54,227 nt of DNA from Chlamydiia bacterium (GCA_963804085.1 CAWDOQ010000008.1:1-54227); one strand, 5' to 3'; shown: positions 48,094 through 51,806, counted from the first letter of the stretch. Translations and numbers: made by a program. The notes: generated by a model not told the origin, from the sequence alone.

Positions 48094-51000
48094 ATGGCGC
48101 CTCCAACACTTGCGGTTGTCATTGGGGTTACTAGGTATTTTCATCAGGGAATAGTGCCCCTTCCTGCCGCACAAGTCGATGCTGTGCATTTTGCACGCGC
48201 TCTTCATCACTGGGGTGTAGACGAGGCAGGGATCTTTTTGTTGCTCAACGAAGAGGCCACCTTAGAGCGAGTAGAAGCTGTTTTTATTAATTACAACTGT
48301 TTGAACAAGAGTATAAACTGCTTTTCTACTTTAGTGGGCATGGTTATAGAGAGGGAGGATCTCCTCCCAGTTCGTTCCTGCTTTTTCATGACAGTTCTAT
48401 CGAAGAACAAAAGTGCAGGAATGCACTAAACCTCGATACCATTATTGCAAAGATCGGCCAGTTGCGGGCAGAAGAGAGCTACATCTTCATCGACGCCTGC
48501 TCTTTGCGGATCAATGCGCTTATCCATCCCAAATTACAAGAGGAGATTGAGGGGCAAAAGATATTAAAAAAGAGCCTCTTTTGTCTTCTCTTTTGGCGTC
48601 GAAGAGTCGTTTGAAAGTAATAAAGAGCAGTATGGATATTTCACCGAAGCGCTTCTACACAGCCTCTCTAAAATTGGGGGCTTTTTAGCATCTCCTACAG
48701 AACTTTTAAATGCGATTTGTAAAAGATTAGAAACAAGAGGAGTGGCTCTTCCCGAGAATGTAAAACATCGCAAACGAGAAGATCTCTTTTCTTGCGCGAG
48801 AAGATGGGTACACCAAAAAAGCTTCTTTTGCAATGATACAAGATGCATTTATCCAAGAGCGGGAAAAGCTATCTGCTTTACGGGAGAAGAGAGGAGTGGA
48901 AAGTCTTTTCTTGCTCGTTTTAGTACTACAGAAAAGTTAAAGACATTCTATTTGAGTTTTCCAGATCAACCGCTGGATGCAACGCTCTTTTTGGCCGGTG
49001 CGATAAAAGGGAGATTTCCCAATCTCTTTGAAGAGGAGATCTCCTCCGTTGAAGTTTTGACAAGGTTTACCGAACTCTATCCTTTTTATCTTTTTATCTT
49101 AGATCAGGTAGAGAGGCAAAAAAAGAAAAAAGAAGATCAATCGCCTTTTGAAGATTAGCTGCACTTTACGCGCTCAGTTTCTCTTTATTTCAAATAGACC
49201 TCTTGGACATAGAGGGCTGATCACTTTACAAGAGGGTAGATACATTGAGCAAAAGCCTTCCCAAAAGAAGCGCTATTTTGTTTCGATACTTCTATTGGGA
49301 GCGATGCTTACTTTTTTCATTGCAAAAACTGGATTGTGCACCTCCTATTCGATTTTTCATCTCAATGCACCTCATCCCGATTTTATTGGACGAGGCCAAA
49401 GCTTGAAGTGGTTAAAGAACATTTGCTTCGACCGTTCAAAAGATGTGCCGATTGCAGTTTTATGGGGTGAAGGTGGAGTGGGAAAAAGTGAAACGGCGAC
49501 TTTTTTTGCTAACCTTCATAGAAAAGATTTTGCGCTTATTTTCTGGATCGATAGTGAGACGGAGGAGAGTTACAGCAAGAGCTACTTTAGATTGGCCAAA
49601 GAGCTTCAGATTTCTTTCGATCAAAAGGCATCTACAAGCGTTGTGGTGCAAAAGGTGCATCAGCATTTAGAGAACAAGAGCGCGCACCAGCCTTGGCTTT
49701 TGATTTTTGACAATGCACAAAATGAGTGTGAACTTCCTCAAAAAGGCAAAGGAGCAGTCCTCATCACCACACGCAATCATCTGCCTTGGTACTCTTACCC
49801 TTGTCTTGAGCTTCTCCCTTTTAGCGAGGAGGAGGCGCTCACTCTCTTTCAAAAGATCACGCAAAAAGCAGAAACTCCTGCACGCAGAACGCTCGTCAAG
49901 GAGCTTGACTACTATCCACTCGTGCTCAACTTGAGCGCACATTACATCGCAGATACTCCAGGAATGACAGAGGAGGATTATTTAACCCTTTTTTCACAAA
50001 ACAAGATCGATCTGATGGAGAGTATGCCGATAGATCATCGCTATCAAACAGATCTTCTTGCTTCTTGGAGGATGGTGGCCGACCAGCTCTTTAATGATTA
50101 TCCTGATGTTCTTCATTGGCTTCACTTCTGCTCCTACTTGTGTCCGGATGGGATCTCCTCATCTTGGCTGCATGACTGGTTGGAGGAGCGTAAAAAAAAC
50201 GAGCGCTCTTTTGCCGTCCAATTACAGATGCATGATATCTTACGCATCCTCGTGCATCGCTGCCTTTTGCGCTATGATCCTGCCTCTCATAAGCTTTCGC
50301 TGCACAGGTTGAAGCAGGAGGTGTTTAAACAAGACCGTTATTTTGACTCTGCAACTCAAGAGAGCGTTTTAGATTTTCTGCTCAAATATGCGAGCTACAT
50401 CGACAAAAGGATGAACTTCAAAAGCTTTGATGAGCTTCGTGAATGGGAACCGCATGCTGCCTGGTTTCTCGGCAACTTCCACAAGGGGTTTACCAGTGAA
50501 AAGATCGCTCTCTTACAAAACGCTCTTGGCAACTGGAAGTACGCAAAAGGGGAGTATAAGAGTGCAAAGAGCTATCTCGAAGAGTCGTTAAAGACGCGCA
50601 TCGCACTTTTTGGAGAAGAGGATGCGCGCACCTTAGCGTCAATGAACGGTTTAGCAGCAACGCTTTTCGAAATGGAGCAATTTCCGGAAGCCAAACACTT
50701 TTTAACTCGTTCGCTTGAGATCTCTAAAAGCCTGTATGGGGAAGAGCACCCCGATGTGATTTTAGCTTTGCACAATCTTGGGTGGGGGCTTTGGGAGATG
50801 GGCCAATTCGAAGAAGCGAAAGCCCTTTTTGCACAATCGGAAGAGATCCAATTTTTAAATGCACCTGAGAGCTCGCACGATTTGTCAAAGATAGACGACC
50901 CGTGCAAGCGTGCTCTTTTTTTTCGCTACGCTGGCCTTTGGATTGAAGAGGTGCTAGGGGACTCGAAGAAAGCGCTCGGTTACTTTAAAGAGAGTTTAAA

Positions 51001-51806
51001 TATTTTCAAAAATACGCTGGGCGAAGAGGACTCCAAAAACAGCAATCGCTTATCGGTCGGTCGGTATTACACTCAATCGCCTAGGCTGTTCGCGAGAGAG
51101 TTTGAAATATATGCAAAAGGGACTGGAGATTCATAAGAAGATTTTCGGAGAGCATCACCCACAGACTGCAAAGAGCTACTCCAATCTCGGCATAAGCTGG
51201 AGAAATTTAAAACAGTACGGCCTTGCTTTAGAATGCCATGAAAAAACATTAGAAATTCGCAGAAAAGTTTTGGGTGAAGAGCATTCAGAGACGGGCAAGA
51301 GCTATGACAACTTGGGGGTCACTTTAGGTCATATGGGAAAGCATGAGCTGGCTCTTAAAAACATTCAAAAAGGACTCGAGATACGCCGAAAAAGTTTAGG
51401 CGAAGAGCACCCTGAAACTGCTAAAAACTATGCCAATTTAGGCATAAGTTATGGGCGGCTTGGCCAGCATACACTTGCGCTTGAGTGTATGCAAAAAGCG
51501 CTTCGTTTAAAAAAGAAGAGCTTAGGAGAGAAGCATCTTCTTACGGCCATGGCTTATACCCAGGTAGCTGCGTGTCTGCGCGAGATGGAGCGTTACGAAG
51601 AGGCGCTGGATCACGACTTAAAAGCTTTAAAGATTCGCGTTAAAATTTTAGGAGAGGAGTACTCTGATACCCTTGCTAGCTATAAATGGCTGGTAGAAGA
51701 TCTCCGCTTACTCAAGCGCGAAGACGAGGCGCTTCTTTACGAAAGAAAAATAGAAGAGATTAACCACTCTTTAGAGCAGCACATTCCAGTTCTTAATGAA
51801 CTCTGA
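48094..51806 (+). CDS. Caspase-like (peptidase C14) - P-loop - TM - STAND/NB-ARC-like - TPR protein, broken by several frameshifts
   Basis: AVVIGV..Y, FYFSGHG (48333-48344 = SGHG), IFIDAC (48492-48500 = DAC), GYFTEALL, GEERSGKS/LFILDQVE, TM helix, GEGGVGKS, WLLIFDNA, GEEHP-type TPRs. Confidence 0.75.

Follow-up and report, generated by a model that had tools for sequence, protein, structure and literature searches.

Does a 3.7-kb region of a chlamydial genome in which no reading frame stays open hold one gene, and what kind of protein would that gene encode? The region lies at positions 48094-51806, on the plus strand, of a 54,227-nt stretch of DNA from a Chlamydiia bacterium (GCA_963804085.1, CAWDOQ010000008.1:1-54227); this whole stretch is called the window below. 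No single frame is open across the region, and it reads as one gene-sized unit through shifting frames. The first-pass annotation, made from the window sequence, had described a hidden caspase-like protease joined to a P-loop, a membrane helix, a STAND nucleoside triphosphatase (NTPase) domain and tetratricopeptide repeats (TPR). Its observation was confirmed, because the motifs it quoted are all present on the plus strand and Pfam families are matched on the pieces. Our analysis suggests that the region is probably a single gene for a fusion protein of ~1,236 aa with the order caspase / P-loop / helix / NB-ARC / TPR_12, belonging to a family that is so far small and found in environmental Chlamydiia.

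Reconstruction of the reading frame

The frame was rebuilt by frameshift-aware dynamic programming, in which intact homologous proteins were aligned with the window DNA. Eight homologues (P0001, P0002, P0014, P0021, P0024, P0013, P0003 and P0004) were used for the first five breaks. The rejoined domain order was recovered, and six frameshifts and two in-frame TAA codons were placed relative to the homologue-defined frames (Table 1), where the first-pass annotation had counted four frame changes. The eight homologues agree on narrow ranges for the first five breaks (48289-48301, 48585-48594, 48748-48763, 48869-48881 and 49117-49135), and five of the six frameshifts together with both TAA codons fall within 48280-49135 (0.85 kb). 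From the ATG at 48094, the N-terminus reads MAPPTLAVVIGV in frame 1.

A related sequence closes the same frame. X1, a 6,139-nt soil-metagenome contig with a depth of ~10, is colinear with window 47874-51900 at ~94% identity, differing by 224 substitutions and 20 gap letters. Ten of the gap letters lie in the upstream spacer, and the other ten coincide with the six break sites (48280, 48586, 48757, 48860, 49125/49133 and 51031). Relative to the window, X1 has one extra base at break 1, two after 48586 and one after 48860, and it is shorter by one base at 48757, by 3+1 bases at 49125 and 49133, and by one at 51031; every coding-region indel has a frame-restoring size, one of them including an in-frame triplet besides. 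Furthermore, single-letter differences at 48288 and 48763 give sense codons in place of both TAA codons, with Tyr at break 3. When corrected by the X1 indels, the span from ATG to stop is 3,711 nt, equal to 1,236 codons and a stop, close to the ~1,240 aa that had been expected for the rejoined gene. X1 is also colinear across the 49136-49204 junction, without a large insert. Among the 24 visible substitutions between the window and X1 in 48094-48860, 16 are synonymous and 8 non-synonymous in the homologue-defined frames. A second run, X2, yielded two 151-nt contigs almost identical to the window, in one of which the A5 run at 51035 is one A shorter, so that break 6 is absent; no matching sequence was found in sequencing runs X3 and X4.

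Table 1. Domains of the rejoined gene and breaks of its reading frame (window coordinates).
Feature	Position	Strand	Details
Start codon and first beta-alpha units of the caspase-like (Peptidase_C14) domain	48094..48285	+	frame 1; matches residues 1-65 of six homologues
Caspase core	48291..48587	+	frame 0; PF00656 E=0.0014, 54 relatives; dyad aligned to MALT1 GHG / DMC
C-terminal part of the caspase-like domain	48595..48757	+	frame 1; YGYFTEALL at 48631-57
Linker from caspase to P-loop 1 (NIANEKISF...AMIQDAFIQ)	48764..48860	+	frame 2
P-loop 1 NTPase core	48883..49113	+	frame 1; Walker A GEERSGKS 48883-906, Walker B LFILDQVE 49090-113
Last conserved strand of P-loop 1	49136..49204	+	frame 2; AQFLFISN 49172-95
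Basic patch KPSQKKR, then single hydrophobic helix	49253..49336	+	frame 2; YFVSILLLGAMLTFFIAKTGL at 49274-336
NB-ARC-type STAND NTPase	49373..50479	+	frame 2; HPDFIGR 49373-93, GEGGVGKS 49466-89, LLIFDNA 49697-717
TPR_12 / TPR_10 sensor repeats (predicted)	50480..51806	+	frame 2, frame 0 after ~51032; stop 51804-06
Break 1	48280..48301	+	window one base short, beside T5 run; TAA 48288-48290 in downstream frame
Break 2	48585..48594	+	frame 0 to frame 1 in TC-rich stretch; net effect one base extra in window
Break 3	48748..48763	+	one base extra at 48757, then TAA 48761-48763; homologues read PEMYNIG
Break 4	48860..48881	+	window one base short at G run
Break 5	49117..49135	+	one base extra, A7-G-A6 tract
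Break 6	51031..51039	+	one base extra before or in A5 run (GEED/PKTAIAY); placed from the P0014 alignment

On the minus strand of the region there are four open reading frames (ORFs) of 61-111 aa, none with a Pfam family, and no Rfam family was matched within 47000-52500. Promoter patterns (8, against 5.2±2.0 in shuffled sequence) and terminator patterns (8, against 4.1±1.8) were not clearly in excess.

Intact homologues and architecture variants

We searched for intact relatives with separate pieces of the region. The caspase piece, compared with 1.84 billion proteins, matched 54 cluster representatives (E<=0.001), and the P-loop piece matched P0001 and P0002 (907 and 915 aa; C14, AAA_22 and TPR) at E=5e-38. 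With the NB-ARC piece 15 proteins were found, ten of them 1,377-1,410 aa long (44-49% identity) and the other five 1,228-1,333 aa. As judged by Pfam and segment-wise BLAST, these 15 full-length proteins (1,228-1,410 aa) and one fragment carry C14, P-loop 1, a mid region, the helix, NB-ARC and TPR_12 in this order; intact homologues with the proposed domain order, including the second P-loop and the hydrophobic helix between protease and STAND domain, therefore exist in other Chlamydiota. In the long forms, C14 occupies residues 1-215, followed by the P-loop module at ~225-375 (AAA_22 / AAA_14 / nSTAND3), a ~210-aa mid region and the remaining domains downstream. The window is 49% identical to P0014 residues 583-1403 over 795 aligned residues, and 60% identical to P0003 over 232 residues.

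The family also varies in its modules. P0025 and P0041 are without P-loop 1, P0037 is without both P-loop 1 and the mid region, and in P0033 (1,885 aa) NACHT and HEAT replace NB-ARC and TPR. The window and X1 represent a further variant in which P-loop 1 is kept and the mid region is missing: beyond 49204, about a third of the way into P0001, the caspase-STAND half is no longer matched, and homology jumps from AQFLFISN to the basic patch, so that ~205 aa of the mid domain (P0014 residues ~378-582), present in most long homologues, are absent. Public records label the homologues only as 'tetratricopeptide repeat protein'. Some carry source names such as 'MAG: tetratricopeptide repeat protein [Parachlamydiales bacterium]', 'Waddliaceae bacterium' or 'Chlamydiae bacterium', and the order-level name of the family rests on source names such as 'Parachlamydiales bacterium'.

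Two further searches added little. Fragment C (48589-49155), compared with the genomes of 40 relatives, matched its own genome only, a null result that says little because the query is partly out of frame. Searches for related loci with P0001 among genome contigs and with the NB-ARC piece among metagenome contigs gave nothing that was confirmed.

The caspase-like domain

As the first-pass annotation had read, the region contains a hidden caspase-like domain whose His-Cys dyad is intact. Both motifs of the dyad lie in frame 0: FSGHG spans 48330-48344, with the His codon at 48339-41, and IDACS spans 48489-48503, with the Cys codon at 48498-500. Of 67 family proteins, 64 have GHG and 65 have D[AS]C. 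The window fragment 48315-48611 scored 18.8 bits against PF00656 (cut-off 21.4, E=0.0014), and 16.5 bits in the whole-genome search; the domain is split over three frames here, and its score is lowered by this. Intact relatives exceed the cut-off, with 56.8 bits for P0003, 53.4 for P0001 and 45.6 for P0014. A profile of the family matched MALT1 (E=1.7e-4) and also metacaspases in the PDB, aligning GHG / DAC to GHG / DMC of MALT1 chain 3v4o, residues that we take to be its catalytic pair. A profile was needed for this, phmmer of P0003 against the PDB giving no match. We also modelled the 263-aa homologue P0003, rather than the window itself, with AlphaFold2 (AF2; pLDDT 76.9, pTM 0.80). In a Foldseek comparison of this model with the PDB, MALT1 (8v4x, E=5.7e-11), GSU0716 (3bij), metacaspases and caspase-9 were matched, all with a probability of 1.00. 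According to this model, P0003 has the caspase-hemoglobinase fold, and the N-terminal domain encoded by the window is a predicted Peptidase_C14 caspase-like cysteine protease.

NTPase modules and TPR repeats

The first-pass annotation had called the first P-loop degenerate. This description does not hold, since GEERSGKS fits the pattern GxxxxGK[ST] as in the homologues, and two such motifs are found in all 15 long forms. The first P-loop fragment itself gave weak AAA_22 / AAA_14 matches, and its homologues match AAA_22, AAA_14 and nSTAND3.

Window 49148-51133 matched AAA_22 with 27.1 bits (cut-off 27, E=5.7e-6), AAA_16 with 21.9 bits, DUF7779 with 21.3 bits and NB-ARC with 21.7 bits (cut-off 23.5, E=1.3e-4). 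Relatives exceed the NB-ARC cut-off (P0014 38.0 bits, P0021 41.2, P0024 45.4). TPR_12 was matched on the window pieces with 98 and 207 bits (E 3.7e-28 and 3.1e-62). Peptidase_C14, NB-ARC and TPR were thus all matched on the pieces, the first two below their Pfam cut-offs. The second NTPase has the motifs of a STAND protein (Walker A GEGGVGKS and Walker B LLIFDNA) and also the layout, with a nucleotide-binding domain and a helical / winged-helix arm (a DUF7779-like part, weakly matched, within 49373..50479) followed by TPR_12 repeats.

The same unit occurs as a separate family of ~745-765 aa, in which a short basic tail precedes the helix and NB-ARC and TPR follow; the Walker motif residues G104, G106, K107 and D182 are invariant in this family. 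An intact member of it, a paralog of 748 aa that is 43% identical to the target, lies elsewhere in the window at 37559-39805. The AF2 model of this paralog (pLDDT 80.6) matched the archaeal STAND-TPR protein 6mfv (E=6.4e-13), Apaf-1 (3sfz) and Avs3 (8dgc), and a wheat resistosome was also among the fold matches.

Assembly error or decay of the gene

The breaks have to be read against an assembly that is prone to indels. The tuf gene (G000 C19, ~300.9 kb) is split between two frames at an A run, pnp (window 20469-22700, minus strand) has two frame changes near 22060 and 22610, and the open frame of rpoB is only 1,078 aa. For a background rate, we took 99 conserved ORFs (123 kb aligned) from 20 stretches of same-family genome; nine of them had frame changes, ten in total or 0.08 per kb, and about half of the ten were near homopolymers of five or more. 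Because of such indel errors, real decay and artefact are indistinguishable here, and pseudogene calls in this genome need read support.

That all the breaks are assembly errors, and that the organism has an intact and functional 1,236-aa gene, is a serious possibility which we place just short of an even chance. It would agree with the frame changes in tuf and pnp, the short rpoB frame and the ten changes in the 99 genes, with the position of most target breaks at short homopolymers or low-complexity runs, and with the near-identical X2 contig that is without the sixth frameshift. The 16:8 ratio of synonymous to non-synonymous changes over the broken segments suggests ongoing constraint, and both stops lie at most 6 nt from an indel, as expected of local consensus errors. 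However, the density of breaks is ~20 times the background (6 in 3.7 kb, 5 of them in 0.85 kb, against 0.08 per kb), both TAA codons arise by base substitution, which indel-type errors do not explain, and the neighbours are open (a 266-aa ORF, RecD2 of 711 aa and the 748-aa paralog). Real and recent decay of the 5' caspase/P-loop third is marginally favoured, and break 6, the 3' frameshift, is likely an assembly error.

The hydrophobic helix and its topology

Hydrophobicity was measured as the Kyte-Doolittle 19-residue mean, and Hessa-scale values were also used. The Kyte-Doolittle maximum reaches 1.92 in the window and ranges from 1.4 to 2.7 in relatives; in all the long and stand-alone forms examined, the HPDFVGR motif follows it after 10-20 residues. 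All 20 long forms have a maximum at this place and none of the 47 short forms does, with a value of at least 1.9 in 18/20 against 0/47. In the AF2 model of the paralog, residues 33-54 form a free helix of low confidence. Basic residues (K/R) number 2-8, mostly 5-6, in the 15 residues before the helix and 0-4 after it, the N-flank being richer in 21 of 22 sequences. One segment of ~19-23 residues at a conserved place, with a charge bias of its flanks, fits a single-pass (bitopic) protein, which is predicted to insert into the membrane.

By the positive-inside rule, this charge bias predicts an N-in, C-out topology, with the caspase and P-loop 1 in the cytoplasm and NB-ARC-TPR outside. The earlier statement that sensor and protease lie on opposite membrane faces goes no further than this positive-inside argument. 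We regard this topology as tentative, since it is difficult to see how a switch that depends on nucleotide would work beyond the cytoplasm. As for its role, the helix may serve as anchor, divider or executioner.

It is quite conceivable, with a probability a little under one half, that the helix does not divide the protein and that both NTPases are cytoplasmic, the helix serving as an anchor or as an executioner that clusters or inserts on oligomerisation; in this respect it may be likened to the N-terminal helices of plant coiled-coil (CC) NLR resistosomes or to the transmembrane 'effectors' on bacterial STANDs. Both Walker A motifs are kept in 15/15 long forms, which argues for nucleotide binding on both sides of the helix. 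The helix also lies 10-20 residues before NB-ARC, the place that it has, at the N-terminus, in the stand-alone forms; the fold matches include a wheat resistosome, and transmembrane effectors on STANDs are named in a figure legend of PMC13581612. On the other hand, 19-23 hydrophobic residues with a strongly basic N-flank make a classical signal-anchor layout, and the stand-alone forms resemble type II bitopic proteins.

Far more doubtful is a trans-membrane NLR, in which the helix would span the inner membrane in the direction that the charge bias predicts, with NB-ARC-TPR in the periplasm and the caspase-P-loop part in the cytoplasm, and a cue would be passed across to the caspase. The periplasmic NB-ARC would use host-derived ATP en route to nucleotide transporters, and the cue would be periplasmic or host-derived. 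If this were true, the partner genes, having been fused independently several times, would stand out as an obligate pair of sensor and executor.

Partner genes and neighbourhood

The two halves of the gene also occur apart. About 47 other family members, mostly of ~850-990 aa, have the caspase, P-loop 1, the mid region and a TPR-like tail of their own, but neither the helix nor NB-ARC. Two genomes of the same family as the window encode a protein of this kind directly before a transmembrane (TM)-NB-ARC-TPR protein, on one strand: in G203 genes for 903 and 832 aa lie 6 nt apart (L042 2055-7717), and in G253 genes for 898 and 762 aa overlap by 1 nt (L043 3009-8453). In G140 and G104, the two kinds of gene lie within a few kb of each other. 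Judged by sequence comparison, the gene is a fusion of partners, caspase-STAND and TM-NB-ARC-TPR, that other chlamydiae encode as neighbours. Since the halves are neighbouring genes in some genomes and are joined in several different fusions in others, this Rosetta-stone pattern gives strong comparative evidence that the two may be functionally coupled.

An orthologous XRE-type helix-turn-helix (HTH) gene (38-51% identity, full length) adjoins the locus in six of eight relatives (G311, G127, G285, G203, G253 and G140) and was not seen beside the loci of the other two examined, G197 and G104. In G140 (L045 2372-7663) the XRE-HTH gene overlaps the caspase gene by 4 nt, and in other chlamydiae a three-part cassette is seen, of XRE-HTH, caspase-STAND (~700-900 aa) and TM-NB-ARC-TPR (~700-830 aa). 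An XRE-HTH gene is also found near the paralog in the window, at 40295-40735.

Among the sampled Chlamydiia, the caspase was found in 16 of 401 genomes and the NB-ARC clade in 29 of 400, all the matching genomes being in the order of the window. In G171, G090, G040, G101 and G089, the NB-ARC clade lies in open frames of 1,421-1,743 aa that the caspase query did not match, and other N-terminal modules seem to be joined to the NB-ARC sensor there.

The surroundings of the paralog (36365-40735) look like a small defence island, because an AAA_14 / DUF4143 ATPase gene adjoining it (36365-37486) matches the PADLOC candidate system PDC-S01 (E=5.5e-59) and PADLOC matches the HTH gene to HTH_VI / capH-like models. 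On the other side of the paralog, a 129-aa ORF without a family precedes the XRE-HTH gene. The same type of ATPase and an HTH gene flank the 1,885-aa caspase-NACHT gene of G127 (L040). In that locus (G127:C127), genes for a 164-aa ubiquitin-domain protein (PF00240, E=3e-22, eukaryote-type) and a 1,662-aa SecA_DEAD / helicase-like protein, at 3626-5033 and 12940-17925, adjoin the caspase-NACHT-HEAT gene and the HTH gene.

Two more observations concern the window at large. Tandem ORFs of 176 and 182 aa at 42601-43676 have near-alike N-termini (MILTG...) and, by their translations, resemble duplicated dCTP-deaminase-type genes; a similar dCTP-deaminase-like gene follows HTH-amidohydrolase genes next to the fusion gene in G311 (L038). 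At 2175-4575 on the minus strand there are four consecutive ORFs (136, 184, 181 and 139 aa), three of them with LRR_8 / LRR_4 repeats, which are probably one leucine-rich-repeat gene in pieces, by error or decay.

Relation to known systems and proposed function

Fusions of caspase, STAND and repeat domains are already known in bacteria, mainly in multicellular or free-living ones. These proteins have an N-terminal His-Cys caspase-like domain, a P-loop STAND and C-terminal repeats, and the ~900-aa class of the present family (P0001 among others) is built in exactly this way. The long forms differ from them in that a TM-NB-ARC-TPR unit replaces the C-terminal repeats, so that two NTPase modules have a helix between them; the repeats are TPR_12 instead of beta-propellers, and the hosts are obligate intracellular chlamydiae. 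With the antiviral Avs and bNACHT STANDs, whose N-terminal effector domains include TM ones, the family shares the logic of an effector, a STAND NTPase and a repeat sensor, and the NB-ARC-TPR half has fold matches to Avs3 (8dgc) and 6mfv. Unlike these, it has no PADLOC match to them, its STANDs are in tandem, and its halves also occur as a two-gene cassette with XRE-HTH. In a PADLOC search of P0014, P0001, P0037 and the paralog, generic 'TPR', 'caspase' and a weak ATPase were matched, and no Avs, NLR or bNACHT model at E<=0.001; the 'NLR-like immune sensor' of the first-pass annotation stays an analogy.

The caspase-like domain is comparable to MALT1 and metacaspases (MEROPS C14) in its caspase-hemoglobinase fold and aligned GHG / D-x-C motifs, whereas the identity is only 10-18% and death or Ig domains are absent here. 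In the system described by Kaur et al. 2020 (PMC7159879), a component with a single conserved TM helix is coupled with a caspase-superfamily protein; there, unlike here, the TM element is a small separate protein without NB-ARC-TPR. Paired plant NLRs and CC-NLR resistosomes are alike by analogy only, having two cooperating STAND units and an N-terminal helix next to NB-ARC that could act at a membrane, whereas no CC domain is found here and the bacterial helix is fully hydrophobic. The word 'chlamydia' does not occur in the main text of PMC7159879 or of a 2026 Nature survey of STANDs (PMC13581612), and, in the library searched and as judged from abstracts, we found no publication on the chlamydial family, on helix-separated tandem STANDs or on the cassette.

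By analogy with these systems, we infer that the protein may be an NLR-like, nucleotide-gated switch for a caspase-like protease. The TPR array would bind a trigger, as in Apaf-1/caspase-9 and in bacterial STAND or Avs proteins, and NB-ARC would exchange nucleotide and oligomerise at the membrane. The clustered caspase domains would be activated by proximity and would cleave their targets.

It is unlikely that the family instead consists of host-directed effectors of intracellular chlamydiae, which would be exported and act in the eukaryotic host or the inclusion membrane. The restriction of the family so far to Chlamydiia, its eukaryote-like domains (NB-ARC, kinesin-light-chain-type TPR and caspase) and the ubiquitin-domain gene beside one locus would fit such a role, and host ATP would solve the nucleotide problem. 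However, the caspase fold begins at residue 4-5, leaving no room for an N-terminal secretion peptide, and XRE-HTH with a PDC-S01-type ATPase resembles bacterial defence islands. In addition, the Inc-type hydrophobic domain is absent, there being one hydrophobic segment of ~19-23 residues per protein; Inc proteins have a bilobed domain of two adjacent TM segments, ~40-60 aa, according to the abstract of PMC3048545.

It is very doubtful that the region holds two genes independent of each other, namely what decay has left of a ~900-aa caspase-STAND gene and a separate TM-NB-ARC-TPR gene, brought together by a deletion accident: the stand-alone paralog in the same window, the ~745-765-aa family, the separate adjacent genes of G203 and G253, the end of caspase-STAND homology at 49204 and the public gene call, a 610-aa protein starting from an ATG inside the helix (P0091), would agree with it, but no stop separates the halves (frame 2 is open from 49112 to 51133), no ATG, GTG or TTG was seen by eye from the TTG at 49148 to the helix, the junction is also found in X1, whose ATG and stop delimit a frame of exactly 3,711 nt, constraint is visible in the 5' part, and fused relatives have four types of junction (full; without P-loop 1; without both P-loop 1 and the mid region; NACHT for NB-ARC). 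Two unrelated genes had been considered as the leading explanation, and this was reduced to a minor alternative after the fused homologues and the colinear X1 contig were found.

Several points weigh against the preferred reading of one fusion gene with an NLR-like product. With tuf, pnp and 9 of 99 conserved genes frameshifted, the state of the gene in the organism is not readable from the assembly. Of the X1 differences, 181 were not individually placed, and stops elsewhere in X1 may exist. The protein-database searches gave no long protein of ~94% identity, and only the 610-aa call of the window itself and the X1 orthologue of the paralog (P0098) were returned. The C14 (18.8 against 21.4 bits) and NB-ARC (21.7 against 23.5 bits) scores of the window are under the Pfam cut-offs. 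The first NTPase, which several lineages of the family have lost or carry in truncated form, may be vestigial in the window lineage, since the ~205-aa mid domain of STAND 1 is missing there. An NB-ARC that depends on NTP and lies outside the cytoplasm is hard to reconcile with a classical STAND switch, and the PADLOC matches of P0014 were limited to the generic 'caspase' and 'TPR', Avs and NLR families not being among them.

Gene callers do not see the protease half of the probable fusion gene in this assembly. Caspase-STAND-repeat proteins are bacterial cousins of apoptosomes and NLRs, and the family described here has, in obligate intracellular chlamydiae, a conserved layout of two NTPase modules split by a predicted membrane helix. 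This layout raises the questions of how two STAND switches may cooperate and how an NB-ARC domain may work at or beyond a membrane.

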